This document shows, one piece after another, positions 8,270 to 63,535 of a stretch of DNA of 64,000 nt (its first letter is position 1; the number at the start of each line of letters is the position of its first letter). The stretch lies in assembly GCF_030684315.1 (NCBI RefSeq), contig NC_081385.1, positions 19,373,247 to 19,437,246 of the forward strand, given 5' to 3'. Source of the DNA: Stegostoma tigrinum. Lineage: Eukaryota. Under the pieces are notes generated by a model that searched no databases, was not told the origin of the DNA, and worked only from the letters and a program-made list of their open reading frames with translations. A program made the position numbers and the translations under genes.

Positions 8270-8364
8270 TCTACAACTTGTTTCTGAGATGATGCAGAAG
8301 TTTTATTATCTGGTGGACAATTGCTGATGAAGTCCAATTATGAAAAGTGTTCAATCCTCAGCAT

Positions 8365-8519
8365 CTTCGGTCCGCCTCCCCCTCTCTCCCTATTTATTCC
8401 AGTTCCCTCTCCCCATCCCCCTCTCTGATGAAGGGCCTAGGCCCGAAACGTCAGCTTTTGTGCTCCTGAGATGCTGCTTGGCCTGCTGTGTTCATCCAGC
8501 CTCACATTTTATTATCTTG
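8365..8519 (+). mobile_element. Penelope-like pLTR-only insertion (subfamily A) with 13-bp TSD
   Basis: Flanked by CAATCCTCAGCAT at 8352-8364 and 8520-8532; near-identical to the reverse complement of ~9615-9770. Confidence 0.9.
8425..8454 (+). ncRNA. minimal type I hammerhead ribozyme motif (Penelope pLTR type)
   Basis: CTGATGA-A-GGGCC(TA)GGCCC-GAAA-CGTC-AG: conserved core boxes, perfect stem II, palindromic ACGT in place of helix III, GUC cleavage triplet. Confidence 0.7.
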
Positions 8520-9580
8520 CAATCCTCAGCATGCTTCCCCAGGCTCTTTTTACCTGTGCCTCACCCATTGGAAGGGATCACATAAAAACCAAGCACGACA
8601 CATTGTGTTTCATCATGCTACATTTCACCTATTAAACAGATTTCTTTTTTTGTACAGTAATGAGTTCCTGGTAGGTATTGGCTGCCTCGTAGAAGTCACC
8701 TGCTTAGTCTGTTGGGCATTGTGTAAGAACCACTTCTCACAAAATTGTAAATAGAAGAGGTCCACACATTCAACCTACTCAGCATTTTTGCCCACTCTGA
8801 CTTCTCTAACCTAAATAATGTCTGATATTTTTCAGCTTTAAGTTAATTGAGTTATTAAATTATATAATTATTCAATTACCAATAGACATCAGTAATCAGA
8901 ACAAAACATCATACATTTTGAATTCCATAGTGTTGACTCTATATAAAGATTCTGCACAACAAAATTGCGCTGGAAAATACTTCAGTTTGGTGAATAGAAA
9001 GTGATTGCTCGTTATATCCCTTGCTGTTCATATTTCAGGCTGTCTGTCATTATGTGATAACTCTGCACATCAGGAAATCAGAACATCCATTATACAACAG
9101 GCACTCTATATTTCTGCTATCACCTCTGACTGGGGACTAATTATAGCAAGAACTTCAGTTCCTGGGCAAATGACTGAGTAGTTACTGGTAGCACAGACTT
9201 CAGCCATTGCCAGTGTCACTTCGAAAAATCATGAGCATTATCATTTGAAAATCTTTGCCACATGCTGTTGGCAGGTGGTGTAACTCTCCAAGAAAAGTGT
9301 TCCTAATATTTCAGATTACTCTTCTTCTAGACCAAGCTTAGAATATATAAATAGCAGTGTTACCAATTTAGGATTTGTTGATTTATAACTGCATTGACTA
9401 CCAGAGGCTTTTCCTTTTCAACTGTTATCTTGTGCTGTTTTACAACTGTACACTGTTAATTATTCTTGACCAGTCTCAGTCCTGACTTATACCATTGCAG
9501 TAATAATAATATGTCTCATGAAAGACCTTTAAATGTTCTCAATTAGGTCCACAGGTAGAAGTAGTCTAACCAAAGTGCAA

Positions 9581-10359
9581 GAGAGATAATGGGAACTGCA
9601 GATGCTGGAGATTCCAAGATAATAAAATGTGAGGCTGGATGAACACAGCAGGCCAAGCAGCATCTCAGGAGCACAAAAGCTGACGGTTCGGGCCTAGACC
9701 CTTCATCAGAGAGGGGGATGGGGGGAGGGAACTGGAATAAATAGGGAGAGAGGGGGAGGCGGACCGAAGATGGAGAGTAAAGAAGATAGGTGGAGAGGGT
9801 GTAGGTGGGGAGGTAGGGAGGGGATAGGTCAGTCCAGGGAAGACGGACAGGTCAAGGAGGTGGGATGAGGTTAGTAGGTAGCTGGGGGTGCGGCTTGGGG
9901 TGGGAGGAAGGGATGGGTGAGAGGAAGAACCGGTTAGGGAGGCAGAGACAGGTTGGACTGGTTTTGGGATGCAGTGGGTGGGGGGGAAGAGCTGGGCTGG
10001 TTGTGTGGTGCAGTGGGGGGAGGGGATGAACTGGGCTGGTTTAGGGATGCAGTAGGGGAAGGGGAGATTTTGAAACTGGTGAAGTCCACATTGATACCAT
10101 ATGGCTGCAGGGTTCCCAGGCGGAATATGAGTTGCTGTTCCTGCAACCTTCGGGTGGCATCATTGTGGCAGTGCAGGAGGCCCATGATGGACATGTCATC
10201 AAGAGAATGGGAGGGGGAGTGGAAATGGTTTGCGACTGGGAGGTGCAGTTGTTTGTTGCGAACTGAGCGGAGGTGTTCTGCAAAGCGGTCCCCAAGCCTC
10301 CGCTTGGTTTCCCCAATGTAGAGGAAGCCGCACCGGGTACAGTGGATGCAGTATTTTAT
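9581..10359 (-). mobile_element. 5'-truncated Penelope-like retroelement (subfamily A), 14-bp TSD
   Basis: TSD TAACCAAAGTG(C/T)AA at 9567-9580 and 10360-10373; encodes GIY-YIG C-terminus; pLTR hammerhead motif at 9680-9709 carries GAAA>GAAC. Confidence 0.92.
9934..10353 (-). pseudogene. Penelope GIY-YIG endonuclease domain fragment (open frame, no start)
   Basis: YCIHCTRCGFLYIGETKRRLGDRFAEHLRSV...PVANHF...EQQLIFRLGTLQPYGINVDF. Confidence 0.9.
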
Positions 10360-16837: not shown

Positions 16838-18699
16838 CTCTACTTAGTTAATTATTTATTTAAAATTAATTAGTTTTTTTTTAGTTTTGCAGTGTTCACT
16901 GCACCAGTAAGTTTACTCCATTATATACTCAATCAGATTCTGGCTTTGCCTTCTGACCTGCTCCCAGAGGATGTGGCGTCTAGGTGACCACCCGGAAAGA
17001 CAACAAAGAGATGAGGGAAAAAAATGCAAATAGCTTACCTGCTCACCACACTTAGTCATTATTATTAGGTTAGAGGAGGCGGAAGGGTGGGAGACACTAT
17101 GCGTGTAGTGTCTTGGGTATTAGTTAACTCCCAAATTTATTGTGTGGAAGCTTACCTTCCCCAGCTGCCCTGTGCTTTCTCCCGCTGCTGAAAGCTACTG
17201 AAAGGCTGCAGTCACACGAGGTAAGACTGTTATAATTGAGAAGCTTACCTTCCCAGATTGCCCTCACACTTTCTCCCAGACTCCCACCACAGAAAACAAC
17301 TATTACCGTTAGTAGCTTCACCCATTCTGCAGATACCACACAGTCTATGGTGCAGACAAGAAGTTACACTCTAGCTTTCAGAGAGATCAGATGTATATCA
17401 GCTCCTTAAAGCCCTAGCAATCACGACAGATTAAGATTAGTTGTGCTTATAAATACCAGGCAGTAAACGATCTATCTAAGAAAACTGTTACTTCCGTAAT
17501 TACTCTACAGTGGTATATTTTCTACCACTGATCATGAGATAGATCCAAGGCAAAGGAAAAACAAAGGAGGATCGGTGCCAGCAAACAGTCACAAACATGC
17601 TACTGGAGCACAGTCGTCATCTGGGAAAATGCCACACTTGGATGGTGCAATGTTTCCCAAGATGATTCAAAATCACAGTTGACTGAAACGTCTTTATGTA
17701 ATTAACTGTACAGTTTAGAGTTGCTTAGTCTGATAGCTGCTAATATATCAGGCTCTGCAAAGGCAATTCTTTCCCAAAAATACACCATCTGCATAACATT
17801 TAAAAAATACATTTTGTACAAATTCAAAGTTGCAAAGTAAGTCAGCTTCCTATAACAGTGTGTATTTCTTACTGCATTCACAATTATAGTTAACATTTGT
17901 AAGATTCATTAGATGTCAAGCATACAACTCAAGGGATTTTACCCAGTTTCCAGCCCCTTGATATCTGAGCACTGGCCTTCTTTTTATTCCAAGGTTCTAC
18001 TGATGCTAATAGAACTATTTATTTGGCATCACACCTGCCCACTCGTGGCATAAGTGCTTTCAAGCTTCTATTATATAGAGGTATTTACTTTCCAGCTGAA
18101 GCAATGGTCAATTTTTAACTTTCAAATTAAGTCCATTCTAATAAGGGTTCTACCAAATACATTTGAAATGCATGTAACACTCATTCTTCAGGTACAAGAA
18201 TATTTGAATAATTATTTGCAATTCCAAGGGTAAATTCTGAATGTTGTAGGAGGTGAATTAGAGGCAGGTGGAAAGCAGGTTAAAAAATGGAGCAGCTCAG
18301 CACTTGTGAGATGGCTATCGTTGATGAGATGAATGTGGACACTTATATAAGTTACAGTTTGATCGTACATATTAAAAATGTGTAGGCCACATTTAAGGCT
18401 GGAAATCTAAGCCTTTTGCTGCATAATGGCTACAGGCAGATTCCTTCAGATGGAGAGTGGTTCTATAAGTCATAAATGGCAAAATTGCTTTAAAGGAGCA
18501 GCTCGGTTATTTGGCAGTGGCATATAATGATGAGAAATTCAATGTGTTAATTCTGTTTTACTCATTTTCCAGGCTAGATCTATGATTCTTTTAGCCGTTG
18601 CCAGGTAACAAAATGTTTTTGTCGACTTAATATGGGGCTTTGTGTTTATATCCTGCTGGTTGCATGCATTAGAATCCTGGACAATATAATCTCAAATTT

Positions 18700-18862
18700 A
18701 AGCCAAAAAAACTACGAATGCTGTAAATCAGAAACAAAAGCAGAGTTGCTGGTAAAGCTCAGCAGTTCTGGCAGCATCTGTGAAGGAGAAAACAGAGTTA
18801 ACGTTTCGGGTCTGGTGACCCTTCAGGGTGAGCTTTTCCAGCAACTTTATTTTTGTTGCGTG
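18700..18862 (-). mobile_element. Penelope-like fold-back mini-insertion (subfamily B)
   Basis: Antisense pLTR end (GTTAACGTTTCGGGTCTGGTGACCCTTCAG) followed by inverted GAGCTTTTCCAGCAACT arm; TSD-like TAATCTCAA(A)TTT at 18687 and 18863. Confidence 0.75.
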
Positions 18863-19061
18863 TAATCTCAATTTTGTTGCTAATTGGCCATTAATCATAT
18901 GATTGACATTTAATATCTGATCTCTCTCATGAGATTAAAAAATAGAAGCAAGTCGAGAAAAGTGAAGATCAGAAAATCAGATGATGGAGTGAATATTGCA
19001 GTGCAAAAAAAATGAAGTAAATCCAGTAATAATGTTACCATATTAATCAACCTGGCATGTA

Positions 19062-22219: not shown

Positions 22220-22782
22220 AGTATCAGAGATAATGGGAACTGCAGATGCTGGAGAATTCCAAGATAATAAAATGTGAGGCTGGATGAACACAGCAGGCCA
22301 AGCAGCATCTCAGGAGCACAAAAGCTGACGTTTCGGCCCTAGACCCTTCATCAGAGAGGGGGATGGGGAGAGGGAACTGGAATAAATAGGGAGAGAGGGG
22401 GAGGCGGACCGAAGATGGAGAGTAAAGAAGATAGGTGGAGAGAGTATAGGTGGGGAGGTAGGGAGGGGATAGGTCAGTCCAGGGAAGATGGACAGGTCAA
22501 GGAGGTGGGATGAGGTTAGTAGGTAGATGGGGGTGCGACTTGGGGTGGGAGGAAGGGATTGGTGAGAGGAAGAACCGGTTAGGGAGGCAGAGACAGGTTG
22601 GACTGGTTTTGGGATGCAGTGGGTGGGGGGGAAGAGCTGGGCTGGTTGTGTGGTGCAGTGGGGAGAGGGGACGAACTGGGCTGGTTTAGGGATGCAGTAG
22701 GAGAAGGGGAGATTTTGAAACTGGTGAAGTCCACATTGATACCATTAGGCTGCAGGGCTCCCAGGCGGAATATGAGTTGCTG
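22220..22782 (-). mobile_element. 5'-truncated Penelope-like retroelement (subfamily A), 12-bp TSD
   Basis: Near-identical to 9581-10141; EQQLIFRLGALQPNGINVDF; TSD TTCCTCCAAAAT at 22208-22219 and 22783-22794; hammerhead motif 22325-22354. Confidence 0.92.
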
Positions 22783-23913
22783 TTCCTCCAAAATCCTTGT
22801 TTTGCCCTCTTTACTCCACTCCGAGTTGTATTTATCTTCTCATCTCCATTTCTGACATTTGAAATGACTTAACCTATCTATTCCCTTCAGTTGCTGAAGG
22901 TCTGTGTAATTCCAAGTGTTTGCTTTTCAGCATCAATTTTATACAGCTATAGTATTTTTTAAAAAGTCATAAAAACAATTGACAGTTTTTCTTTCGTCAG
23001 ATAAATCATGCAAATTAAAAATAGTCCGCAATCTCTTATTGAGTCTAGTGATTTTATTTCATAATAATATATTCTGGAATTGTTCCCAGTCTTTAATAAT
23101 TGAAAGCATGAATGACTGCAATAGGAAGATTTGCTTGATGACCAAAAGTTGCACACCAGGGTCTAATGATATGTAGGAGAATTAAAGCATTGTAGAAATT
23201 AAGTTGATAGGATAGGTAGTGGCAAATGGAATATAATATGCGTAAACACAAATTAATGTACATTGGTGCAGATTAATTAGCATGCTCATACATACTACAT
23301 GAATGTCAGGAGCTAAAGCGTAGAAAATATTGTGCATATGAAGAAAAATATCTGGCCAATGCAAACTTTTTATTAACATAATCATGTATTCAGATGGGTC
23401 TGTTAGACGTATGATCAGCTGGAAAAGATTATCATAACCCTGTGTAATTTCATCAACAAGGTTACTCTTGGAATATTAAATTAAATTTTCCACCTGATTT
23501 CCTCTCACACAGAACTTTGTCTGCCAAGGGCACCGATCAGGATTCATACACATATGGTCCTGTGGGTTTGTGTCCATTACTTCTGTCAGATACAGAAGCA
23601 TGGGTTACGTAATCAACATTTGCATTCCTGGCAAGAGGCACTTCATTCCAGAAGCATGCAAGTGATAAATATGCCATATTTCATACCACGCAGATCCCTT
23701 ATCTTAGTCAGGAGATTGATGGCACTTGAAAAATAGTAAAGGTGAATTAAATTTGTTAGGCAAAAAGGAGATAAAAACATGTAATTGACACAAGTATTAA
23801 AATACTGAAAACCATTGACAATGTAATCAGTTTGATGAAAACCATAAAGAGGACATTGGTGTAACATCTGCAGATGAGATGGAGGTGCTCAGAAAAATGT
23901 CCACAGCTACCAA

Positions 23914-24119
23914 GAGATAGTAAGAACTGTCGATGCTGGAGTCTGAGATAACACAGTGTGAAGCTGGAGGAAAAGAGCAGGCCAGGCAGCATCAGAGGAG
24001 CAGGAAAGTTGACATTTCAGGTTGGGACCCTGCTTCAGAAAAAAAGGGTCTCAACCCGAAATGTCAACTTCCCTGCTCCATTGATGCTGCTTTGTTCCTC
24101 CAGTTCCACGTTCTGTTAC
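23914..24119. mobile_element. Penelope-like fold-back mini-insertion, 13-bp TSD
   Basis: TSD CCACAGCTACCAA at 23901-23913 and 24120-24132; two pLTR ends in inverted orientation meeting at the hammerhead core. Confidence 0.88.
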
Positions 24120-25254
24120 CCACAGCTACCAAACTGGCTTTGTGGAAAAAAAAACACCATTGGGTGGATTGCAGCTGTGGTCTTCTCTGGATACTGGCAG
24201 AGTGAGGTCATGAAAGTGTGGGTCTGAAATGTCCAACACCAAAAGGCTGCCACTTTTCATTGGCTGTGTTTGGTTACCTGATGGCACCTTTCTGCCAAAT
24301 AGAAAATTTGTTTCAATCAAGAAGCCTTAAAAAGCCTTTATATTACCATTACTGGCCAATAACTTCCTGTGGGGGTAATGTTTGAGCAGCTCTTCTTACA
24401 CAGATATAACACCAGATTATGATGCACCCATATGCAATGGATGCCAATGGTACATTGGTGATGCAGCTACAAGTGAAATATATTTTAAAGGGAGTACCAA
24501 TCATGTTAAATGAACACATTTGAAGCCATTAGGTTTTGTTAATCATTTAGCTGCTACCAATTGGGCTGCTGTGAGCCTTTCTGATAATTTATTTCTATGA
24601 GCTTTTTTATCTCGCTGCTACATTAGTGCTGCTAATGGATTTCCCATGTAATTATCCATATAAATAGGAGTCTTATAGCAAGGGAAATGACAACAGAAGG
24701 ATGGCTCATAGGTTAGGTTCAACAGAAGAGCTCTGCTCCTGTTCAGCCTCGTGTCTGTAAACACATAACTTATTTTGCCGAAGATTAGCGCAAGTAAAGC
24801 TTTCAAGATGAGCTATCATAGGACTCTTGACTAACCACAATCACAGTATCCCATTTTTTCCAATGGTACCACATGTAAAGGGACAGAGAAATCAACATCC
24901 CACATGGTCTAATTGGTTGCTTCTGTCAAAATGATGTCAAACATATCAGATGAAAGTGTTACACTTATCTGGCATTGACCACTGTGATGTCTTTGAAGCC
25001 TTCAGAAACAAAACTGCATCAGACTGAAACAGGTGGATTTTAAAATGCTAGCCAGGTCGGAGCTCGATAAGGGATCAATGTAGGTAGTGGAGTCCTGGAG
25101 GTCATCTTCAGATCCTATACCTCTAGAACAGTCTACAATTTTCAAAGTCAGGTTTGCGATGAGGGAACAGTGAACTCCATTACCTTTAATGAATGACCTG
25201 TGAGTTCTGGGTGATGCTCGACTCTGTAAATTAGGCACCACGCCTTCCCATGCT

Positions 25255-28394: not shown

Positions 28395-29460
28395 AAGAAC
28401 AGCCTCAGCAGAGATGACAGTTATTTGCCCGAGGAGTCCTCAAAACTATCTCTGACCACCATGAAATTTCATGGTATCAGGTCAAACATGGGCAAGGAAA
28501 CTTCTTTATGATTATTACATTCAATCCTTGAAGGAAGCATTAAGGGTGGCAAAGATGCAAAATATACTCTGAGAGGGGCGACTTCAATGTCCATCACCAA
28601 GACTGGCTTGGCAGCGGCACTACTGTTTGAGCTGGTCAAGACCTCAAGAACATAGCTGCTAGACTGGATCTACAGCAGGTGCTGAGGGAACCAACAAACT
28701 GACCTCATCCCTACCAATCTTCCTGCCACAGATGAGCCTGTGCATGTCAGAATTGTGAAGAGTTCCCACAGCATAGTACAAATGGTGATGAAATCCAACT
28801 TCCACAATAAGAACACCACCCATTGTGTTTGATGTCAGTATCACCATGTTAAATAGGACAGACGTTGAACAGATCAGGCAACTTAAAACTGGGCATCAGC
28901 AGCAGAAATATATCCATCACAGTCTGCAACCTCCTGGCCAGCATAACCTCACAAAACCATTACTATCAAACCAGGGGATCAACTCTGGTTCAATGGAGGG
29001 CAGAGGAGGGCAGTACTAGATGCACTTAAAAAATAGATGTCAATCTGGTGAAACTACCAAACAAGACTACTTGCATACCTAACAGCATCAGGAACAGGTG
29101 ATTGACAGAGCTAAGTGATCCTGCAAACAAAGGATGTGTCTTAAGTTCCTTGGTCTTGCCACATCCAGCTCTGAACATGCTGGAAAATTAAACAACTCAC
29201 TGAAGGAGGAGGCTTCAGAAATATCTCCATCCTCAATGATGTGTGCACCAAGGACATCCATTGAACAGAAGCATATGCAACAATACTAAGCAAGAATAAA
29301 TTATCCATCTCAGCCACCTCCAGTAGTCCCCTGATCAGCAATAAACCACTCTAATCTTCATCCCTTGACATTTACTGGCATTATAATCACTGAGTACTCC
29401 ATTGTCAACATTTTGTGGGTTATCATTGACAAAAAAATGAATTGGACTCGCTTTTTGAAT

Positions 29461-29644
29461 AAGGATAGTAAGAACTGCCAATGCTAGAGTCAGAGATAAC
29501 ACAGTGTGGAGCTGGAGGAACACAGCAGGCCAGGCAGTGTCAGAGGAGTGGAAAAGTTGACGCTTCGGATAGGGACCCTTCCTAGACATCTGCTTTCCTG
29601 CTCCTCTGATGCAGCCTGGCCTGCTGTGTTTTGCTGTGTTATCT
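29461..29644. mobile_element. Penelope-like fold-back mini-insertion inside the L2/Crack LINE
   Basis: Inverted pLTR arms; degenerate TSD CTCGCTTTTTGAAT (29447) / CTAGCTTTTTAAAT (29645). Confidence 0.8.
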
Positions 29645-29814
29645 CTAGCTTTTTAAATATCTTGCAACAACAGCAGGCCAATGGCTCAGAATACCATGGT
29701 GAGCTACTCACCTCCTGACTCATCTGCCTCTTCACTGTCTAACATCTACCAGGCACAAGTGAGGAATATGATGGAATACTCCTCAGATGCCCGAACGAAT
29801 GCAGTTTCCACAAT

Positions 29815-30872: not shown

Positions 30873-33430
30873 ATAGAACATACATAGAACATAGAACATT
30901 ACAGCACAGTACAGGCCCTTCTGTCCTTGATGTTGTGCCGACCTGTCATACCGTTCTGAAGCCCATCTAACCTACACTATTCCATGTACGTCCATATGCT
31001 TGACCAATGACGACTTAAATGTACCCAAAGTTGGCGAATCTACTACCGTTGCAGGCAAAGCGTTCCATTCCCTTACTACTCTCTGAGTAAAGAAACTACC
31101 TCTGACATCTGCCCTATATCTTTCACCCCTCAATTTAAAGCTATGCCCCCTCGTGCTCGCCGTCACCATCCTAGGAAAAAGGCTCTCCCTATCCACCCTA
31201 TTTAACCCTCTGATTAATTTATATGTCTCAATTAAGTCACCTCTCAACCTTCTTCTCTCTAATGAAAACAGCCTCAAGTCCCTCAGCCTTTCCTCGTAAG
31301 ACCTTCCCTCCATGCCAGGCAACATCCTAGTAAATCTCCTCTGCACCCTTTCCAAAGCTTCCACATCCTTCTTATAATGCGGTGACCAGAACTGTACGCA
31401 ATACTCCAAGTGCGGCCGCACCAGAGTTTTGTACAGCTGCAGCATAACCTCTTGGTTCCGGAACTCGATCCCTCTATTAATAAAAGCTAAAACACTGTAT
31501 GCCTTCTTAACAGCCCTGTCAACCTGGGTGGCAACTTTCAAGGATCTGTGTACATGGACACCGAGATCTCTCTGCTCATCTACACTACCAAGAATCTTAC
31601 CATTAGTACAGAACTTTGCCTTCCGGTTACTCCTACCGAAGCGCATCACCCCACGCTTGTCCGCATTAAACTCCATTTGCCACGTCTCTGCCCAGCCCTG
31701 CAGCTTATCTATGTCTCTCTGCAACCTACAGCATCCCTCGTCACTATCCACAACTCCACCGACCTTAGTGTCATCTGCAAATTTACTAACCCATCCTTCT
31801 ACACCCTCATCCAGGTCATTTATAAAAATGACAAACAGCAGTGGACCCAACACCGACCCTTGCGGTACACCACTAGTAACTGGTCTCCAGGGTGAACATT
31901 TCCCATCAACTACCACCCTCTGTCTTCTTTCAGCAAGCCAATTTCCGATCCAAACTGCTATATCTCCCACAATCCCATTCCTCTGCATTTTGTACAATAG
32001 CCTACTGTGGGGAACCTTATTGAACGCCTTGCTGAAATCCATATACACCACATCAACTGGTTTACTCTCATCTACCTGTTTGGTCACCTTCTCAAAGAAC
32101 GCAATAAGGTTTGTGAGGCACGACCTACCCTTCACAAAACCGTGCTGTCTATCCCTAATCAATTTATTCTTTTCGAGATGATTATATATCCTATCTCTTA
32201 TAACCTTTTCTAACACTTTACCAACAACTGAGGTAAGGCTCACTGGTCTATAATTACCAGGGTTGTCTCTACTCCCCTTCTTGAACAGGGGAACCACATT
32301 TGCTATCCTCCAGTCGTCTGGCACTATTCCTGTAGACAATAGTGAATTAAAGATCAATGCCAAAGGCTCGGCAATCTCCTCACTGGCTTCCCAGAGGCTC
32401 CTAGGACAAATCCCATCTGACCCAGGGGACTTAACTATCTTCACACTCTGTAGGATTTCTAATACCTCTTCCTTGTGAAACTCAATCCCACCAGTCTAGT
32501 AGCCTGTATCTCAGTATTCTCCTCAACAACATTGTCATTTTCTAGAGTGAATACTGTCGAAAAATATTCATTTAGTGCTTCCCCTATCTCCTCTGACTCC
32601 ACACACAACTTCCCACTACTATCCTTGATTGGCCCTAATCTTACTTTCGTCATTCTTTTATTCCTTAAATACCTATAGAAAGCCTTAGGGTTTACCCTGA
32701 TCCTATCTGCCAACATCTTCTAATGTCTCCTCCTGGCTCTTCTGAGCTCTCCCTTTAGGTCTTTCCTGGCTACCTCGTAGCCCTCAAGCGCCCTAACTAA
32801 GCCTTCACATCGCATCTTAACATAAGTCTTCTTCTTCCTCTTGACCAGAGATTCCACCTCCTTCGTAAACCATGGCTGCCGCGCTCTACAGCTTCCTCCC
32901 TGCCTGACAGGTACATACTTATCCAGGATACACAGGAGCTTTTCCTTGAATAAGCTCCACATTTCTACTGTGACCATCCCCTGCAGTTTCCTTCCCCATC
33001 CTATGCTCCCTAAATCTTGCCTAATCTCATCATAATTGCCTTTCCCCCAGCTATAACTCTTGCCCAGTGGTATACACCTATCCCTTTCCATCACTAAAGT
33101 AAACATAACAGAATTGTGATCGCTATCACCAAAGTGCTCACCTACTTCCAAATCTAACACCTGGCCGGGCTCATTATCCAGTACCAAATGTAATGTGGCT
33201 TCGCCCCTTGTTGGCCTATCTACATACTGTGTCAGGAAGGCCTCCTGCACACACTGAACAAAAACTGACCCATCTATAGTACTCAAACTATAGTGTTCCC
33301 AGTCAATATTTGGAAAATTGAAGTCCCCCATGACAACTACCTGTCTCTCTCACTCCTATCGAGCATCTTCTTTGCTATCCTTTCCTCTACATCTCTGGAA
33401 CTATTCGGTGGCCTATAGAAAACTCCCAAC
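30873..33430 (-). mobile_element. young 5'-truncated CR1 LINE
   Basis: (ATAGAAC)n tail at 30873-30899; ORF2 from EN motif MGDFNFPNIDW to stop, interrupted only by one nonsense codon (32720-32722) and one frameshift (~32460). Confidence 0.95.
30972..32444 (-). CDS. CR1 reverse transcriptase domain + C-terminus, 490-aa open frame (part of disrupted ORF2)
   Basis: KSPGSDG, NYRPVSLTS, QHGFVKGRSCLTNL, DFSKAFNKVPH, GVPQGSVLGPLLF, FADD, RPHLEYCVQFWSP. Confidence 0.9.
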   Translation of the reverse strand: MKIVKSPGSDGICPRSLWEASEEIAEPLALIFNSLLSTGIVPDDWRIANVVPLFKKGSRDNPGNYRPVSLTSVVGKVLEKVIRDRIYNHLEKNKLIRDRQHGFVKGRSCLTNLIAFFEKVTKQVDESKPVDVVYMDFSKAFNKVPHSRLLYKMQRNGIVGDIAVWIGNWLAERRQRVVVDGKCSPWRPVTSGVPQGSVLGPLLFVIFINDLDEGVEGWVSKFADDTKVGGVVDSDEGCCRLQRDIDKLQGWAETWQMEFNADKRGVMRFGRSNRKAKFCTNGKILGSVDEQRDLGVHVHRSLKVATQVDRAVKKAYSVLAFINRGIEFRNQEVMLQLYKTLVRPHLEYCVQFWSPHYKKDVEALERVQRRFTRMLPGMEGRSYEERLRDLRLFSLERRRLRGDLIETYKLIRGLNRVDRESLFPRMVTASTRGHSFKLRGERYRADVRGSFFTQRVVREWNALPATVVDSPTLGTFKSSLVKHMDVHGIV

Positions 33431-35155: not shown

Positions 35156-36469
35156 TACTTTTGCATTAGGCCTGGTTTTCATGTACTTTTCCATTTTATT
35201 TCACTGGTTCGTTGTCATGCGCAACTAATCCTTAATGATTAGCCTTTCATGGTGTAGTCTGAAGACATTTTTAACTTCAACACTGCAGCCTTGTGAGCAG
35301 TCTCTCTGCAGCCAATTCCTGACACTGAATTTGAACGTGGCATTTTGGGTCAGAGGCAGTAATGCTATCAGATGAACTACAAGACCTCCCTGTGACAATA
35401 TTGGTTATAAATAGGAAATAGATGGCCAATTCATATAGCCTATTTCATGCTATTGTCCTTAAATAAAATAATAACACTTTGTTTTGACAGTAGTGGTTTC
35501 AAACGCTGCAATGACTCAATCGTCTCCTGGTTTGAAGCCATATTTCCTTCATAGGGGAGCAATTAGATGATAAAAGTGCAATGAAAACAAATAGGCAAGA
35601 AAAACATTCAAGCATACATGTCACGTTGAGTGATACACTTGTGTTCCGGACTGTTTGTGCCCAGTGGTAGAATATTACAGCTCTCTTTGATACCTAAAGT
35701 GCAAAGCCATTGGATGGATTGGGATTGATCCAGGAGTGGGCAAAATGCAGCCTATGGAAAGTGAATTTCAAATCAAGACCTGTGTTCCTGACCCACACCA
35801 TTTTCCCTCATCAGGAAATGTGTCAGATCGTGATCCTGCATGCATGTTTCATGTTGCAAGGGTCACCAATTACAAAGACTCTGCACAAATTTGAACTTCA
35901 TTCTCCATGCCATTTTATTTTCAACAGTAATGATATGGAACTATGTGTGATAGTCAACTGGTCAGTTCAAAGGCTGTGGTAAATGACCCCCAAATCTCAT
36001 ACACACCCTCCAAATTCCCTTGCATCCCCTGGCCATTCATTCATATTTCTCCTATTCTTCCTCTAAATCCACCTGCATGATCATGGCATCTCCATGGTCC
36101 CTCCTATCCATTTTACACCCTCCAATACTTTGGCATTTCCATGTCCTGTCTACGGCACCTCATATCCCTCCATTGCTCTGACGCACACTCCATAGCAATC
36201 TTTTAGTACCCAGTGTATGGAAAACTAGTGATCAATTTGATAACAGTGAGAAGTCTTTGAAAGTCTTTGAAAGCCTCAGGAAGAGTCAATATAAACAAAC
36301 GGACTTTGAAAACCTCCTTTGCTATAACCTCCTGCTCTTACAACCTCATCAAACTGTGAACTAACCATAGCCATTGATAGCATCAATGAATAAGATTAAC
36401 ATCACCTTATACCGACAACTTTTGTCCAAAGAAATGAACAGATATTTCTTTGGACAAACAACTAAGAAA

Positions 36470-37915
36470 AATAGAAACTGAAAGAACTGTGGATGCTATA
36501 AATCAGAAACAATAACAAAATGGCTGGAAAGGTACCCGCAGGTCTGGCAGTATCTGTTAAGGAGGAAACAGATTTATTTTTCTTGTCTCTTGTCTGGAAT
36601 TGAAAAACTTCATCAATCTCGCCTCCAGTTTCCACCCTGCTCTCACTTTCACCTGGTCTATCTCTGACACCTTTCTTCCTTTCCTCGACATTTCTGTTTT
36701 CATTTCTGGGGATAGACCACTAATATCCATTGTAAACCCACCGACTCCCACAGCTACCTGGGCTATACATCCTTACACCCCACTTCCTGTAAAGACTCCA
36801 TCCTATTGTTTCAGTTCTTCCGTCTCCGTTGCATATGTTCAGATGAGGCCAACTTCAAGAAGGGGGCCTCCAAAATGCCCACCTTCTTTCTCAACTGAGG
36901 ATGCCCCCGCTCTGCTGTCGACAGGGCCCTCAATCAGGTCCACCCATCTCCCTCACTTCCACCCTCACCCCTTCTCTTCCCTCCTGCCACAGCAATAGGG
37001 TTCCCCATGTCCTTACCTACCATCCCACCAGTGTCCACATCCAGAAGATTATCAGACGCCATTTCTGCCACCTCCAGCAAGATGCCACTACCAGACACAT
37101 ATTCCCTTCCCTTCCCTTGTCTGCCTTCTGCAGGGACTGTTCCCCCCAGGGGATCCTGGTCCACACCTTCTTCACCCTCAACAGCCCCCAACAGGTGAAG
37201 GTGCTACACCTGCCCATTTACCTCCTCTCTCCCCAGTATCCAAGGGCCCAAACATACATTTCAGGTGAAGCAACACTTCACCTTTGCTTCACACAATCTA
37301 GTCTACTGCATTCACTGCTCATAGAGTGGTCTCCACTACACTGGGGAAACAAAGCATAGACTTGGTGACTGCTTCACAGATCATCTATGTTCTGCTTGCA
37401 AAGAAGACCCTGAACTACCTGTTGCCCACTACTTTAATGCACCACCCTGCTTCCCGGCCAACAGCTCTGTCTCAGGCTGGATGCCGTGTTCCAGTGAAGC
37501 CCAATGCAAGCTGAAGGAACAAGACCTCATTTTCCACTTGGGGACCCTCCAGCTTTCTGGACTCAATATCGAGTTCAATAATTTTAGGGCCTAAACTCTC
37601 CCATGCCCCAGCCGCCCACTCCACACACCAGGTCTTGTTACCACACAGCCTGCCATTATACACCCCCGGGGTTAGTCACTAGCCTGATCATTATCTACTC
37701 TTTTGTTTGTCCAACTGTTCCTATCTCTCTGTTTGGGCTCTATCCTATCATTTACTCCCTACCTCACCCACTTCCCTATGTTTTGCAAATCAACTGACAC
37801 TTTTCCAGCCACCATCAGTTCTGAGGAAGGGTTACTGGACCCGAAACATTAACTCTGTTTTTTCCTTCACAGATGCTGCCAGACCTGTTGCGTTTTACTA
37901 GCAACTTTGTTTTTG
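36470..37915 (+). mobile_element. Penelope-like retroelement (subfamily B): RT C-terminus + GIY-YIG + pLTR, with inverted pLTR copy at the 5' end
   Basis: KNFINLASSFHPALTFTWSISDTFLPFLDI (RT), KPTDSHSYL, NLVYCIHCS..GLHYTGETK..LPVAHYF..EQDLIFHLGTLQLSGLNIEFNNFRA*; hammerhead motif 37821-37853; 36470-36575 is the terminus in reverse. Confidence 0.9.
37817..37854 (+). ncRNA. minimal hammerhead motif, subfamily B variant
   Basis: AGTT-CTGAGGA-A-GGGT..ACCC-GAAA-CATT-AACT; AGTT/AACT can form stem I; the copy near 18800 has GAAACGTT. Confidence 0.5.
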
Positions 37916-41000: not shown

Positions 41001-41470
41001 AAGACCTCAAACAGATTATTAATTAATCCCTTCTCATTGCACAAAACCAAGTCTTGCATACCTGTTCTCCAGGTGGTTCCTCAATGTATTGATCTAAACA
41101 AAATTGTATACACACTTTAGGAATTTATCTGTTGCAGTATTATTGTTAATCTGGTTTGCGCAGACTCAGTGTAGATTACCAAAGTGTGAAGCTGGATGAA
41201 CACAACAGGCCAAGCACGAAACGTCAGCTTTTGTGCTCCTGAGATGCTGCTTGGCCTGCTGTGTTCATCCAGCTTCACACTTTGTTATCTTGGATTCTCC
41301 AGCATCTGCAGTTCCCATTATCTCAATGTAGATTAACATCACTCATGATCACTTCAGCACTACGATTACTTGTTGCACACATCTCTAATATCCTGTTTAA
41401 TGTCACCCCCTAGCACATCACTACTTTTCTGGAGGCCTGGACAATTCCCTTTAATGTTTTCCAGTCCTTT
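38090..41470. mobile_element. cluster of nested degraded CR1 fragments in both orientations
   Basis: Plus-strand 3' ends at ~38395-38805 (LRGILIEVFK) and ~38990-39420 (LRGDLIEVYKIMKG); minus-strand pieces at ~38090-38335, ~38810-38940, ~39600-41470. Confidence 0.75.
41179..41321. mobile_element. Penelope-like fold-back mini-insertion, 14-bp TSD, inside CR1
   Basis: TSD CTCA(G/A)TGTAGATTA at 41165-41178 and 41322-41335; inverted arm CAAAGTGTGAAGCTGGATGAACAC.. / ..GTGTTCATCCAGCTTCACACTTTG. Confidence 0.9.
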
Positions 41471-43039: not shown

Positions 43040-44937
43040 AGAGTTCATTAATCACTTAAATGACACAAATGACTGAAACTAAGTGAGGGATCAAAATGTA
43101 ACTTTACTAAGTTTGCTGATGACACAAATTGAGCAGCATTATGACCAGTGATGAGGATGCACGGAGGCTTATAAGATGACTTAAGACGAATTGAGTGAGT
43201 ACATGCCAGATGCAATATGACTACTTGTAAAGTTATGCTCTTCAGTGTGGAAAACAGAAAGAAAGTGTACTTAATAAACGATGGTATTTTGGGGAGTGTG
43301 GATGTATAAATGGGTAAGGGTGTCATTTTGGGGAGTGTGGATGTATAAATGGGTAAGGGTGTCATTTTGAGGAGTGTGGATGTACAAATGGGTAAGGGTG
43401 TCATTTTGGAGAGTGTGGATGTATAAGTGGGTAAGGGTGTCTTTTTGGGGAGTGTGGATGTATAAATGGGTAAGGGTGCCATTTTGGGGAGTGTGGATGT
43501 ATAAATGGGTAAGGGTGTCATTTTGGGGAGTGTGGATGTATAACTGGGTAAGGGTGTCATTTTGGGGAGTGTGGATGTATAAATGGGTAAGGGTGTCACT
43601 TTGGGGAGTGTGGATGTACAAAGGGGTAAGGGTGTCATTTTGGGGAATGTGGATGTATAAATGGGTAAGGGTGTCATTTTGGGGAGTGTGGATGTATAAA
43701 TGGGTAAGGGTGTCATTTTGGGGAATGTGGATGTATAAATGGGTAAGGGTGTCATTTTGAGGAGTGTGGATGTATAAATGGGTAAGGGTGTCATTTTGAG
43801 GAGTGTGGATGTATAAATGGGTAAGGGTGTCATTTTGGGGAGTGTGGATGTATAAATGGGTAAGGGTGTCTTTTTGGGGAGTGTGGATGTATAAATGGGT
43901 AAGGGTGTCATTTTGGGGAGTGTGGATGTATAAATGGGTAAGGGTGTCATTTTGGGGAATGTGGATGTATAACTGGGTAAGGGTGTCATTTTGGGGAGTG
44001 TGGACGTATAAATGGGTAGGGGTGTCATTTTGGGAAGTGTGGATGTATAAATGGGTAAGGGTGTCATTTTGGGGAGTGTGGATCCATAAATGGGTAAGGG
44101 TGTCATTTTGGGGAGTGTGGATGTATAAATGGGCAGGGGTGTCATTTTGGGGAGTGTGGATGTATAAATGTGTAAGGGTGTCATTTTGGGGAGTGTGGAT
44201 GTACAAATGGGTAAGGGTGTCATTTTGGGGAGTGTGGATGTATAAGTGGGTAAGGGTGTCATTTTGGGGAGTGTGCATGTATAAATGGGTAAGGGTGTCA
44301 TTTTGGGGAGTGTGGATGTATAAATGGGTAAGGGTGTCATTTTGGGGAGTGTGGATGTATAAATGGGTAAGGGTGTCATTTTGGGGAGTGTGGATGTACA
44401 AATGGGTAAGGGTGTCATTTTGGGGAGTGTGGATGTATAAATGGGTAAGGGTGTCATTTTGGGGAGTGTGGATGTACAAATGGGTAAGGGTGTCATTTTG
44501 GGGAGTGTGGATGTATAAATGGGTAAGGGTGTCATTTTGAGGAGTGTGGATGTACAAATGGGTAAGGGTGTCATTTTGGAGAGTGTGGATGTATAAGTGG
44601 ATAAGGGTGTCTTTTTGGGGAGTGTGGATGTACAAATGGGTAAGGGTGTCTTTTTGGGGAGTGTGGATGTATAAGTGGATAAGGGTGTCTTTTTGGGGAG
44701 TGTGGATGTATAAATGGGTAAGGGTGCCATTTTGGGGAGTGTGGATGTATAAATGGGTAAGGGTGTCATTTTGGGGAGTGTGGATGTATAACTGGGTAAG
44801 GGTGTCATTTTGGGGAGTGTGGATGTATAAATGGGTAAGGGTGTCATTCTACAGCAATCAACAAATGGATTCAGGCAGCAAGTAATTTGGAAAGGAAAGT
44901 GTATGTTGACTTCGTTGCAAGAGAATTTGAGCTCAGA
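43040..44937 (+). mobile_element. CR1 RT fragment hosting the minisatellite
   Basis: AAGTTTGCTGATGACACAAA (KFADDT) at ~43108; downstream of the array the CR1 continues (QQVIWK..MLTSLQENL-like). Confidence 0.75.
43286..44845. repeat. 39-bp minisatellite, 40 copies (ATTTTGGGGAGTGTGGATGTATAAATGGGTAAGGGTGTC)
   Basis: 1560 bp = 40 x 39 with no indels (long open frames across the array); only substitution variants. Confidence 0.98.
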
Positions 44938-45125: not shown

Positions 45126-45402
45126 AATAATTAGTGTCACATGTGGGTCTGAAAGAGTCAATATTGATTGATTGCAATAAATTGTTTGAACTAAGGCGAG
45201 ATCCTTGTATCAAGCTCATTAATAACGCATGTGATCACTTTGTGACATGAAAGTAATTACAGACACAAAATAAACTATACTGTTTTTGCTACAAGAGACT
45301 TCTAATTATGACAGGAGGTGGTTTTCCTCGACCATTATAGACAGAGCAGACCATGCAGCCCACGTATCTTGATAGTTGCAGAGGCAGTGCATGCAAAGAA
45401 TG

Positions 45403-45601
45403 AAATAAAACAAAGAACTGTGGATGCTGAAGATCTGAATCTAGAACAGAAATTGCTGGAGAAACTGAGCAGGGCTGGCACATTTGTGGAGAACAAGCAG
45501 AGTCAATGTTTTGAGTCCTGAACTGGGTTCCAGCCCTGAAAGGATCACTGGGTGTGAAACGTTCAATCTGTATTCTACCCACAGACGATGCCAAACCTGC
45601 C
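45403..45601. mobile_element. Penelope-like fold-back mini-insertion (subfamily B), old
   Basis: Antisense pLTR end (AAACAAAGAACTGTGGATGCTG..) followed by sense GAAACGTTCAATCTG..CCACAGACGATGCCAAACCTGC. Confidence 0.65.
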
Positions 45602-45744
45602 AATTTTGACCAGCAAAGAGTGGTTCATTAATGAGACGAACTGACATCCCACCATTGGGACCACATTTAACCCTTCCACCCTCCAACTTAACCAGGGGAT
45701 GGTTCACCCTTCCACTACAGAGTGGCACCAGCAGGCCATCACAT

Positions 45745-46093
45745 GGAGGTAGCGGCCTCATGGTATTATCGCTGAACTATTAATCCAGAGACTCCAGGTA
45801 ATGTTCTGGTGAACCCCTCAACAGCAGTTGGTAGAATTTGAATTTAATAAAAATATGGAATTAAGAGCCTAATGATGACCATGAATCCATTGTTGATTGT
45901 CAGGAAAAACCCATTTGGTTCATTAGTGTCTTTTAAGGAAGGAAACTGGCAATCCCACCTGGGCTGGCCTTCACTGTGACTTCAGACCCACAGCAATGTG
46001 ATTGACTCTTATCTGTCCTCTGGGAAAATTGTGATGGGCAATAAGTACTGGCCTACCCAGTGATGACCTCATCCCATGCATGAATTAAAAAAA
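45745..46093 (+). mobile_element. tRNA-headed SINE, full length, with LINE-derived tail
   Basis: Head GGAGGTAGCGGCCTCATGGTATTATC, body CAGACCCACAGCAATGTG, tail GATGGGCAATAAGTACTGGCC..ATCCCATGCATGAATTAAAAAAAA. Confidence 0.8.
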
Positions 46094-46147
46094 AGAAGCA
46101 GCCAGGGGTCCTGTTGTGAATGGTAAGAAACACTGTAAGATTCTTAG

Positions 46148-46358
46148 AGATAATGGGAACTGCAGATGCTGGAGATTCCAAGATAATAAAATGTGAGGCT
46201 GGATGAACACAGCAGGCCAAGCAGCATCTCAGGAGCACAAAAGCTGACGTTTCGGGCCTGGACCCTTCATCCAAGGGTCCAGGCCCGAAACGTCAGCTTT
46301 TGTGCTCCTGAGATGCTGCTTGGCCTGCTGTGTTCATCCAGCCTCACATTTTATTATC
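46148..46358. mobile_element. young Penelope-like fold-back mini-insertion, 15-bp TSD, 86-bp perfect arms
   Basis: TSD CTGTAAGATTCTTAG at 46133-46147 and 46359-46373; arms 46182-46267 / 46273-46358, 5-nt spacer. Confidence 0.95.
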
Positions 46359-48331
46359 CTGTAAGATTCTTAGCTGTGTTTGGGTGCAATGCTTAATGCC
46401 ATAATATTGTACAGGTAGCAGAAAAAAAGCTGCATTTTATTCAGCTTCCCATCACAAGTAATGAAAGGTTGAGTAGTGGCTCTCTCATGATATGAAGAGT
46501 TTGGGAATTACATTTATGAGTTTTTGTGAGTGTATATATTTTATATATATATTGCGAATGCTGTCATTAACATTTTTTGCCACAGCCCCAAGAGGCTGCA
46601 GTAACATTAATTAGGGTCAGGAGTGTTGCTTTTGTGCTGGTAGATTCTGCAATGCTATATTGATTACCTCATCCTGATGTATGGATCATGGCTGATGAGG
46701 CCCCAAATGAAGGAGTTGGTTGCAGGTTCAGGAGAACAGAAAACAAGAGTAGCAGTATCTGGGAAGAAACAGAATACAGTCAACAGCCCTCCTTCAAAGA
46801 AACCAGATTCCATTAATTTTGTTCACTCTATGGCAAATCTGATCATTTTATATTTGTCTATTTAATAATAGTGATGATGTTACACTTTAGAGTAACTAAT
46901 TAGGCTTGAAGCATTTTTCAATGCATTGACAATGTGAGATAGCACCAAATAAATAAGAGCTGTTACTTCTTAATTTCCTGAGGCTTAGAACAATTGGGGA
47001 ATGTAATCACAGTGCATGACTTTTAAATGCCATTTGTATGCTTTCAGTTCTTTTTAAGTATAATTTTCCTTTATGGTGAGAGGAAAGGAAATGAACGCAG
47101 TGAATTATGTGATTGTTCATGTGCTACACTCGAATTGCAATCACCCTAATTGGCCAGAGAGTTTTTAGATTATTAACACAAGCAAACAGTATATTCCACT
47201 TTGCCACTAAACTGCATTACCACAGTGACTACACTTTCAAAACACCTAAATGACTCAGTAGGGTGTCCTGTGGTCATGAAAAGTGTGATTTGGATGCAAA
47301 TATTTATTTTCCTTGAATGTTCTGAGAAGTAATTTTGAGCACCATTTGGTTTGTGGAGCTGTTTAACATCCAAACTCTAAGGCACCTCCTGTGTACATTT
47401 TTTGGTGTAGGTTTACCTCAACCTGATGTGGTGATTTTCCTGAGCTGATAGAGCTTTGCTGGCTGGAGTCCTCTGTGATTGACAGCTCAGTGTGCAGAGA
47501 TTTCAACTCACAAATTATATTGGCAATCTACAGGCCATTCAGGATTATGGTATCTGAAATTCATGGCCAACGGCCAAGATGCTGCCTGTATTTCAAAATA
47601 CTGGGCCAGCTTACCAAGTGTGCAATAGCAAGAGAGAGTTTTCAGACTTGTGTTTGTAAAACAAAAATCAAATTGCTCTCTTCTTTTAACTATCCAACCG
47701 CCCTGGGAAATCTAAGTCTCACTGCTAAAAGGTGTGCTATTTAGTGATCTAATTTATGTAAACAATGCAGTTTATTGTTTTCACTACTGTGTGTTGAGTT
47801 ATTAAATGTTGCTCAGTCAACTCTTAATAAAGAAATGAGAACTAAAAAGGTGAATGATGAATTCTGGATTGTGTGTTAATCACTAATCTAGAGGTCAGCA
47901 CTTTGGATGATGAGGGTCACTTGTTGAAGTAACTAGGGGCACCGAACCTGATTAAGAGAAAACCTGAAAAGCCAAAACACAAGATGTATAGAAGTGATAG
48001 CTGAAGTTACTTATTTATGAGAAACAAAGGGCTAAATGTCGCTGCATTTCTTGGCTAAGCCTGTTGAGGGAACCTCGCTGGAAGGCCCAGCAAGTATTCT
48101 CACCTCATCTTGTCAAACCTGTCAGAGTCATTGAGAAACCCAACTCTAGGGCTGCCTTCATATCAATTTATGCCCATCTAACTGTGCGCATTCCCCAAAG
48201 AATTCACCACTCAGCAGACATCAATCCAAAGACCGTTACCCCTTGGGTCAGTGCCATCTTTATAAAACCACTTACATGGACCATTGGCATTCAGCAGCTG
48301 CCCTGCTCTCTCAAACACGGTCTAAAGAAAG

Positions 48332-57329: not shown

Positions 57330-57990
57330 AAGACGAGCAATACATTTTCAGCTTGCAGACCCCTTCCAGACTCAATACCGAATTCAATCATTTTAGTGCC
57401 TGAGCTCCTTCTCCCACATCCTTTCCCAACCCCCAACACCAGACTTTGTCATCACATGGATTGCTTCCACAACCAATGCATCGTCAGCTACTAATAATCC
57501 CCATGAGCAGCTAATGATTCTTCAGGCTGACCTTTACCCATTCCTTTGTCTACCCAACTGTTGTTCTCTCTCTCTCTGGGATCCATTTACACCAATCATT
57601 TATTCAGAGGTAGTAGGAACTGCAGATGCTAAAGTCTGAGATAACACAGTGTGGAGTTGGAGGAACACAGCAGGCCAGGCAGCATCAGAGGAGCAGGAAA
57701 TTTGACGTTTTGGGTCAGGACTCTTCTTCAGAGAAAGGGAGAAGGGTCCCAATGTAAAACGTCAGCTTTCCTATTCCTCTGATGCTGCCTGGCTGCTGCA
57801 TTCCTCCAGCTCCACACTGAGTTATCTCTGATCATTTATTTCTTCCTTACCTATTCCTCAACATGCATACCAACATTTTCCCAGCAACAATCCGTTCTGA
57901 AGAAGGGTTACTGAACCATAAATGCTAACGCATCTTTTGCTCATATATGTTGCCAGACTTGCTGAGTTTTTCCATCAATTTCTATTTTAG
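57330..57990 (+). mobile_element. old Penelope-like 3' region (subfamily B)
   Basis: EERAIHFQLADPFQ..IQSF corresponds to a degraded EQHLIFRLGTLQP..NIEFNNF; degenerate hammerhead TTCTGAAGAAGGGTTACTG at ~57895. Confidence 0.65.
57605..57830. mobile_element. Penelope-like fold-back mini-insertion nested in older Penelope, 10-bp TSD
   Basis: TSD ATCATTTATT at 57595-57604 and 57831-57840; inverted pLTR arms meeting at the hammerhead core. Confidence 0.88.
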
Positions 57991-61790: not shown

Positions 61791-63409
61791 TAAATGGTGT
61801 ATCCTTAATGTCAGATGCATTGTTGGACACCAAGCAAAGAATTTCATTGAGAAAACTGCATTAGTGATAGTAGTCAGCAAGGTGGCATTTTCTGCTGACA
61901 AGCCATACAGATGCCTCACAATGAGCCTTATTAATTGGGCCATCAATTTTACCTTAGCGGTATGATGCAATGAAGGAATCAGCTTGAACATATTTGTGAA
62001 TATTGTGGGTGCTCAAATATGGAAGAAAAATGGTGAAAATACTCAGTAGATCGGGCAGCATCTGTGGAGACAAAGGAAAAACAGGATTAATGGCCTGGAT
62101 TTCTTCCTCAAGGCTAGGTGCAGGATTAGGAAATTTCCCAGGTTGGCCTGAGGGCATGAGGCCAAAGTACCATGGAGGACATTACCTTCAATGTGGTATG
62201 GTTGGATAGAGGAGGTGCACTGGTAACAGCTAGACCAGCTGGCCTGGGTGCAGAGCTGGGCTATTTGAAAAGCCTAAAAATGCTAAGGGATTTCATGGAA
62301 GTTATGATAAAACCAGAAAGTCCCTCCAGTCCACACCCTTCATATATTCTCACCCCCGCCCCATCAATCGCACGCTTCTTGATCAATCAATTTGGTCCCT
62401 CAAACTGTTCATACCAAGGTATCCCCCTCAAAAGAGCCATATTCCTCATGACTGATTTGTCAAGGTACCTCCCACAACCTCTCAGGCCCCTTGTATTCGA
62501 TCCAAATCCAAGCTATTGGAGCTTCATGGCAATTCTCACACTAGAGAGTTTAGAGAAAGATTGATTCCCATGGTGACCATAGTTGGTGGTTGAGGAGGTA
62601 GTGCTGTTAGGTGGGTGAGGGGGTAGGGTGCCACGTTAGCTGAGAGGTATAGGTGAAAAGGTGAGTGAGCAGTTGGTATTAGCTAAGTGGACAAAGTTGT
62701 GGTGCGGGGGGATGTTGGGTTGGAGGGTGTTGGGTTGGAATTGACAGTAGATTGGAAGAGTGTAGCTGGGGGTAGAGGCGGGCCAGCGGTGAGGTAGGGG
62801 CTCAGCTTAATAGCTTTTCAAGAGTTAGAGCACAAGTCTAGTTCTCTAATACTTCTTGAGTAAAAATTAAGCTGAATTGATTCGGAACCCTCCAAAATCT
62901 CCGACTCTGAGGGACTTTTCAGGAGCTTCCCGGCATCAATGAATTTCCCCAAGGTACTTTCAATTTCCTTAACAATTATTGCAGCATCTAATGCTTCAAG
63001 AATTTCTGCATAGTTGTGATGTGCAATCTACCCTGCAGAAATGACTATCTAGACATCAGCATTTCTGGGTTATTATTTAATAGACGCCAGAGGCTGATTT
63101 TTGATGAAATGAATGACCACTGTCAGGTAGATTATAAATAGCCTGTAGGCTGTCATAACGTCTTGCTTACACTGGTCCATCTCTTAAAGGCATCTGTCTC
63201 AAATCACCTGCTCAAGACAGTTGTGACCAGATCACCGTAAACAAATGTAGGATTACGATACGTTTTCTCAGGCAGAACAATCTCTGAAACTCAAGCCACA
63301 GAGCACTGCTACTTACTGAGACAAATGTTTGAGTCCAGTCAATGAAGAGTTTCCACGGTTGTTTTTAATATTCATCTTGGATTTGTCTGGCAATTGTCAT
63401 GGTTGTGAT

Positions 63410-63535
63410 AAAATGTGGACTCCCATTACAGAAATTCTTACAGAAACTCAGCAAACCTGACAGCATCTGTGGTGAGAAAACAGAGAGAACATTTTGATTC
63501 CAGTGACTCTTCTCCAGAAACGGACCTGGTTCTGA
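63410..63535 (-). mobile_element. Penelope-like pLTR remnant (subfamily B)
   Basis: GAAACTCAGCAAACCTGACAGCATCTGTGGTGAGAAAACAGAGAGAACATTTTGATTCCAGTGACTCTTCTCCAGAA. Confidence 0.6.

Follow-up and report, generated by a model that had tools for sequence, protein, structure and literature searches.

Fold-back Penelope ends in the genome of Stegostoma tigrinum form de novo, probably by priming from both target strands

A hairpin built from two ends of a Penelope-like element (PLE) and flanked by a TSD raises the question of whether it is a by-product of TPRT or a member of a MITE-like family of hairpin RNAs that is mobilised in trans. Such a hairpin lies at 46133-46373 of the window, the whole stretch of 64,000 nt of Stegostoma tigrinum DNA analysed here (NC_081385.1, positions 19,373,247 to 19,437,246 of the forward strand). 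An earlier note, made from the sequence alone, had reported 86-bp perfect arms and a perfect 15-bp TSD, and both were reproduced on recomputation. The arms (46182-46267 and 46273-46358) measure 86 nt each with a 5-nt spacer between them, the flanks are perfect 15-bp direct repeats (46133-46147 and 46359-46373), and folding of the 211-nt insert gives -187.9 kcal/mol (z -25.9), a value that none of 200 shuffles equalled. One arm carries an unpaired tail and the other is tailless (Table 1; +1 denotes the first C of the predicted hammerhead core CTGATGA). Both arms share a variant at +14, neither keeps the complete core, and the final two TSD bases match the element end as well.

The insertion model is supported by an empty allele. 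In run X4 (same species label, other sample; depth 20.8) one single contig (record 21) covers 45995-46132 and 46359-47000 as adjacent positions, with 46132 joined straight to 46359 and one TSD copy left. The exemplar thus looks polymorphic within the species, and the family is therefore active now or has been recently. In run X5 (other species label) a contig begins at 46359 with 68 unaligned letters before it, which is suggestive only; runs X13 and X15 do not extend over the flanks.

Table 1. Penelope-derived features of the window; strand "." where none applies
Feature	Position	Strand	Basis
Short solo 3' end of parent element	8362..8532	+	
5'-truncated parent copy: GIY-YIG C-terminus, 3' UTR, predicted hammerhead core, tail	9582..10354	-	
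Fold-back mini, more distant pLTR family, 25/29 arms, 13-bp TSD with 1 mismatch	18687..18875	.	
5'-truncated parent copy with tail	22226..22791	-	
Fold-back mini, older subfamily, 62/74 arms, perfect 13-bp TSD	23901..24132	.	
Fold-back mini, older subfamily, 56/71 arms, 12-bp TSD with 1 mismatch	29450..29659	.	
Fold-back mini, 42/42 arms, perfect 15-bp TSD, additional junction segment	34979..35170	.	
Fold-back mini, 41/43 arms, 14-bp TSD with 1 mismatch	41165..41335	.	
Decayed old fold-back, distant family, 44/57 arms, doubtful 10-bp TSD	45393..45622	.	
Exemplar, left copy of 15-bp TSD	46133..46147	.	direct repeat; single copy in run X4 empty allele
Exemplar, tailed arm, pLTR end +3 to about +126/128	46148..46271	-	sequence comparison, folding
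Exemplar, unpaired 34-nt tail of tailed arm	46148-46181	-	
Exemplar, single extra junction base, absent from either arm's template	46272..46272	.	
Exemplar, tailless arm, pLTR +7 to +92	46273..46358	+	
Exemplar, right copy of 15-bp TSD	46359..46373	.	direct repeat
Fold-back mini, older subfamily, 77/92 arms, perfect 10-bp TSD	57595..57840	.	

Eight fold-back loci had been listed for the window, the one at 45403 as probable, and at all eight the inverted-arm score exceeded the best of 60 shuffles: 42 versus 20 at 18700, 87 versus 22 at 23914, 62 versus 22 at 29461, 84 versus 22 at 34994, 73 versus 21 at 41179, 45 versus 26 at 45403, 176 versus 21 at 46148 and 119 versus 23 at 57605. Each locus has its own TSD of 10-17 bp, either perfect or with a single mismatch; the case of 45403, the weakest of the eight (10 bp, 1 mismatch), is doubtful. 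The distant pLTR family to which 18700 and 45403 belong has further copies at 36464-37915, 29819-29949, 57941-57990, 62042-62090 and 63444-63512; the first of these resembles a larger head-to-head unit whose coding sequence has decayed, with an identity of about 70-75% to the young family. An unrelated inverted repeat at 8145-8275 (46/54 arms) is without a TSD and shows no relation to the pLTR by BLAST. The window also harbors a minisatellite at 43286-44848, in which a 39-bp unit is repeated 40 times (94% matches) and long open frames run on both strands, as well as fragments at 12252-13941, 15381-16154 and 30972-33349 which we take to be CR1-type LINE RT and endonuclease frames, one of them open for 507 codons.

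The hairpin arms are 95-99% identical to the 3' terminus of larger copies at 9582-10354, 22226-22791 and 8362-8532 of the window. A frame at 9934-10359 corresponds to a GIY-YIG C-terminus and is identical at 139 of 141 positions to the 981-aa open RT-EN frame of another locus (L061), in which RVT_1 (E 6.4e-5) and GIY-YIG (E 0.0036) were detected, both under the Pfam gathering scores. This single frame, RT followed by a C-terminal GIY-YIG, points to an EN+ PLE as the parent. The parent frame (P0001) carries a C-x4-C-x2-C linker upstream of GIY-YIG and a CxxC inside it; a CX2-5CxxC linker before the C-terminal GIY-YIG is given as the mark of Neptune and Nematis (PMC8557442). By its RT, its linker and the internal CxxC the parent would be of Neptune or Nematis type. 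Unlike these two, it shows no evident microsatellite targeting here, the TSDs being 62% AT versus 58% in the background. A 39-bp tandem repeat (2.9 copies; 9954-10065 and 22599-22710) closes the parent frame and adds a Pro/Ser-rich C-terminal extension beyond the endonuclease.

Partial tandems form the pLTRs: among 19 leader-bearing arms, 13 extend beyond +10 and run into an upstream 3' end. The pLTR contains a minimal predicted hammerhead core, the boxes of which can be read directly from the sequence; a search against Rfam gave no match at gathering score, and a single pLTR monomer folded no better than shuffles. The standard hammerhead rule places the cut between +28 and +29.

The abundance of these structures was estimated from 111 segments, each of 10 kb and together 1.11 Mb, which start at round coordinates of large contigs. 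This sample is systematic rather than random, and the distant 18700-type family is left out of the counts. It contained 249 arms, comprising 69 head-to-head pairs and 111 unpaired arms, together with 3 tail-to-tail neighbours, a chance-like number. The pairs span 137-3,930 bp, 50 of them at most 265 bp and 19 between 305 and 3,930 bp; the same number, 50 of 69, are bodiless, that is, composed of two pLTR ends only. TSDs of 10-19 bp flank 50 of the 69 sampled pairs and 34 of the 38 young ones. Scaled to the genome, this corresponds to about 144,000 minis (107,000-190,000) for the detected families only, while an exact-match arm pattern found 7,823 minis in the whole genome. At the other end of the size range, the 150 scored of 274,249 candidates in a protein search included 21 pairs of a minus and a plus match no more than about 4 kb apart, and long inverted arms were present in 15 of 20 stretches chosen around long frames or such pairs. 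These 15 long head-to-head units measure 1.7-5.1 kb, and most show the one-sided tail and TSD by eye; some of the kilobase-scale copies are close to symmetric, among them a palindrome of 5,068 bp. Because copies of up to 5 kb have the identical layout, the minis are the short end of a head-to-head continuum from 137 bp to 5 kb and not a separate class, and the size of 140-230 bp given in the earlier note does not delimit them.

Near-perfect palindromes of 1.7-5.1 kb that derive from this element are kept in the assembly at L064 (1145-6212 of G000:C1:18749500-18757000), L065, L066 and L068, with arms 99.5-99.8% alike and hardly any spacer. Two pairs of loci, L187 with L188 (G000:C13, about 6 Mb apart) and L022 with L023, have identical insertions in identical flanks and are therefore segment duplications, not independent events.

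The outer ends of the sampled arms fall into two groups, at about +88 to +99 and at +125 to +143, and a nearly strict rule governs their combination. A tailed arm is paired with a tailless one in 67 of 69 pairs, with no pair having both arms tailed and two scored as both tailless; in a larger, partly selected set the count was 91 of 93, with one pair of each exception. Locus L292 is a further two-tailed case. The tail, 34-36 nt long, is found on one side only. Both outer-end types also occur alone, 35 tailless and 19 tailed among 54 young solo insertions, and each is therefore a start site by itself.

The two arms of a unit are related in length as well as in sequence. Both were short in 48 pairs and both long in 17, with two mixed (Fisher p 5e-14), and the inner ends of paired arms are correlated (Spearman 0.62). 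Subfamily alleles occurred on both arms 87 times and on one arm 13 times, compared with permutation means of 22 and 146; rare variants were on both arms 4 times and on one arm 73 times, most of the latter presumably being later mutations. In 11 long units the arms differ at 0-8 of 859 bases versus a between-locus median of 5. One of these units has 8 differences between its arms and at least 21 from any other unit, and in several the distance to other loci is no greater than that between the two partner arms. The tailless arm reaches deeper inward in 32 of 67 pairs and the tailed arm in 22, with 13 ties, a distribution that simple copying of one cDNA cannot produce. The description of the minis as a pLTR end plus an inverted partial copy of itself therefore does not always hold, and a simple template switch on one cDNA conflicts with the 32 pairs whose arms each have sequence that the other lacks. 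Deletions at the tip of the hairpin after insertion might also leave either arm longer than its partner.

Inner ends are concentrated at two places. Among young arms at risk, 47 of 104 stop at -10..+10, a hazard of 0.0215 per nt versus about 0.001 upstream and 0.005 downstream. This stop may mark the start of the RNA, though a single strict start is doubtful because just 6 of 19 arms at risk in leader-bearing copies stop there and 13 enter the upstream tandem copy (by eye, one duplicate removed). Two candidate signals at the arm ends were discarded. An extra G before +3, as a cap would leave, is common in the 30 best matches to the query, but genome-wide the base at +2 is G in 1,248, A in 2,025 and C in 802 cases and none of 137 sampled arms ends at +3; it is an artefact of selection for likeness to the query. 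A 4-nt target word beside the tailless arm, present in about one third of the best matches, occurred once in 50 in the genome sample and likewise reflects selection bias. An added G before -1 or -3 in a few solos is too thin to use.

The second place coincides with the predicted ribozyme cut. Genome-wide, 4,653 matches start exactly at +29, versus 1,813 at +28 and 1,833 at +30, each count including point mutations; by eye, 26 distinct +29 loci comprised 20 true ends and 6 point changes. Of 17 partners of true +29 arms, 16 likewise end at +29 or further on (by eye), and at two of the loci read the arm jumps from +29 into leader sequence. Among 50 sampled minis, 7 have both arms ending at +27 or further on, versus 2.9 expected (Fisher p 0.004, post-hoc threshold), while an exact +29 end was found on just one of the 137 young arms of the 1.11 Mb sample. 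The four bases after the cut form a palindrome that matches other places by microhomology, a confound which inflates the +29 class. We consider it somewhat likely that cleavage by the hammerhead in vivo causes the excess. Five composite loci (L017, reverse strand, about 1730-510; L183, L192, L280 and L282) have a short pLTR end that passes into leader sequence, either at about -3..-1 or at +29, as though the enzyme had come to the end of one RNA and switched to another template.

Taken together, these features make it probable that each hairpin is one insertion in which both nicked target strands prime cDNA on one sense RNA and the cDNA ends are then joined. In this model a dimeric RT-endonuclease would nick the target strands with a stagger of 10-19 nt; one 3' end would prime at the inner site (about +92) and its counterpart at the outer one (about +128), and the tail would therefore be one-sided. 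Both cDNAs would extend toward the 5' end of the RNA and, in the minis, stop early, mostly at -10 to +10 (the 5' edge of the core) or at +29 (the cut). Their ends would anneal through 1-12 nt of microhomology or with a few added bases, and the joined mini products would be dead on arrival. The part of the model that concerns one RNA is weakened in that shared alleles show a common subfamily and not one RNA molecule.

Self-priming, by which a single cDNA or antisense RNA snaps back and is extended into a hairpin whose outer ends the endonuclease resolves, is an unlikely alternative route. It has been put forward for head-to-head Penelope palindromes, with antisense RNA suggested for rotifer Penelope (PMC3846280); it also accounts for arms of the same subfamily and for coupled arm lengths, and the microhomology at recurrent junctions could be intramolecular. 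However, in the 32 pairs noted above the tailless arm has unique inner sequence and the tailed arm has the tail, so neither copies the other. Perfect palindromes with zero loop are common, the enrichment at +29 corresponds to a cut in the sense RNA, and solo insertions use the +92 end, all of which speak against a folded single strand; the zero-loop palindromes at +29..+32 fit the annealing of two separate ends.

A version of dual priming in which each enzyme subunit copies its own RNA molecule, both RNAs coming from one source locus, has a small chance of being correct. It does away with the need for two enzymes on one stretch of RNA, is consistent with the asymmetry of the tail and with microhomology joints, and would suit some discordant pairs such as the 13 one-arm alleles and L206, the arms of which look like different subfamilies. 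Against this, neither the coupling of arm lengths from 50 nt to 2.5 kb nor the finding that 16 of 17 partners of +29 arms end at or beyond +29 is readily explained.

The junctions between the arms bear on the question of a propagating family, for which identical junctions at many loci had been proposed as a test. In the 1.11 Mb sample all 21 young minis have distinct junctions; the 30 best matches to the query were excluded from junction frequencies, being selected. The exemplar's junction recurs at 8 loci, which belong to several subfamilies and differ in their outer ends; the +3 end is on the tailed arm at four and on the tailless arm at four, shared alleles vary by locus, and the +14 variant is present in the exemplar only. 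Arms in this set resemble their own partner rather than other loci with the same junction. Among the first 50 exact-arm loci listed, some junctions recur at microhomology sites. The commonest class, a perfect palindrome centred at +29..+32, accounts for 41 of the 52 loci listed, which by proportion would correspond to about 590 in the whole genome, against 4 centred on a neighbouring 4-nt palindrome of the core; its 13 inspected loci comprise several allele sets and subfamilies with variable outer ends. Such recurrence on varied backgrounds therefore marks hot spots and not common descent. In the 38 young pairs, 19 junctions show microhomology, 1 is blunt, 13 have 1-5 added bases and 5 have longer additions.

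A MITE-like family, transcribed whole as hairpin RNA and mobilised in trans, is accordingly very improbable. The high copy number (7,823 with exact arms) and the recurrent junctions, one class at about 590 loci, would suit it. The distinct young junctions, the presence of recurrent ones in both polarities and on different subfamily backgrounds, and the match of arms to partners rather than to same-junction loci contradict it. Neither one master-derived junction with fixed termini nor TIRs flush with both TSDs at uniform size, as expected of MITEs, were found; instead, the young junctions differ, the tail is one-sided and the units range from 137 to 3,930 bp. Moreover, all young mini arms end by +143, whereas the green anole enzyme requires RNA about 55 nt past its outer start (PMC11167929). 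By this analogy the minis would be without the enzyme binding site. At the core side, an arm that extends to the start of the hammerhead core is present in just 10 of the 21 young minis. For the bulk of the minis the MITE-like reading is largely refuted, and single hairpins may occasionally be re-mobilised. The minis form de novo; of the two origins proposed earlier, the distinct young junctions and the layout shared up to 5 kb favour the TPRT by-product.

Long palindromes are generally unstable, they exist in this genome and internally deleted copies occur (L017), but it is least probable of all that the minis are longer inverted insertions which lost their centre after insertion, as inner ends cluster at fixed places (0.0215 per nt at -10..+10 versus about 0.001 upstream), solos share those stop places and near-perfect palindromes of 1.7-5 kb remain intact.

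Dual priming as proposed here can be set beside several known systems. In L1 twin priming the second target strand primes a second cDNA, giving an inverted segment on the 5' side and a microhomology joint; the inverted parts derive from non-overlapping stretches of the RNA. Here, arms covering different RNA stretches were not found: unlike in L1, they duplicate one stretch and begin at two fixed starts about 36 nt apart. The insertion unit fits the layout published for EN+ PLEs, an inverted 5'-truncated copy with a one-sided tail of 30-40 bp and a TSD (PMC8557442; Adineta vaga Pen2a, PMC3846280). Shared features are the head-to-head copy, the one-sided tail, the TSD and the partial-tandem pLTRs; in contrast to the units described there, most units here are bodiless (50 of 69), their number is on the order of 10^5 and the pairing of tailed with tailless arms is near-strict.

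The closest biochemical parallel is the PAc/Poseidon enzyme of the green anole, which in vitro cuts and extends both strands and has two start sites, and for which a dimeric form is predicted (PMC11167929). Its template is needed up to ORF +172 and its starts lie at 111-118 (PMC11167929). The two modes of outer ends seen here, both of which occur in solos, correspond to the anole RT start sites that bracket the tail, and in both systems the pLTR contains a hammerhead. The use of start sites in vitro did not differ between strands (PMC11167929), and this absence of strand preference does not itself predict the strict pairing of tailed and tailless arms. In the accessible text of that study, no RNA-seq reads end at the ribozyme cut, in contrast to the enrichment of arm ends there in our data, and the inverted layout is not derived from dual priming. 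Ribozyme pairs are also known from Schistosoma, where minimal hammerhead cores occur on opposite strands 100-700 bp apart (PMC4209133). Non-LTR retrozymes share the minimal type I core in the pLTR but are described as tandem, not inverted (bioRxiv 10.64898/2026.07.22.740005). Their units lie head-to-tail, each with a type I hammerhead core, an arrangement not found in the minis, which are head-to-head and include an exemplar without a complete core.

The minis appear to be dead-end Penelope insertions and, as a class of element, are ordinary, being the smallest form of a layout already described. No account of them or of dual priming by PLEs was found in the literature, though repeat databases, subscription papers and supplements may hold one. 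The formation of tandem and inverted PLE structures is called undefined in PMC8557442, and the activity of PLE hammerheads in vivo is called unproven in PMC4209133. The value of the present results is mechanistic, as junction statistics lead to two testable predictions: one RNA serves two primers, and the template ends at the cut. Whether the roughly 10^5 stumps are a fossil record of an asymmetric dimer that primes both target strands at two fixed sites on one RNA, with the junction class representing the 5' end left by germ-line self-cleavage and the cut RNA used as template, seems to us an evenly balanced matter. If this reading is true, they are genomic evidence of germ-line cleavage by the minimal PLE ribozyme and of the use of the cut RNA as template. 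Penelope is reported to be the heavily edited repeat among the LINE class in a lizard, and heavy editing is also reported for a palindromic frog repeat (PMC5625713). Were the near-perfect hairpins of this species transcribed, their number, some 10^5, would make them a major source of dsRNA.
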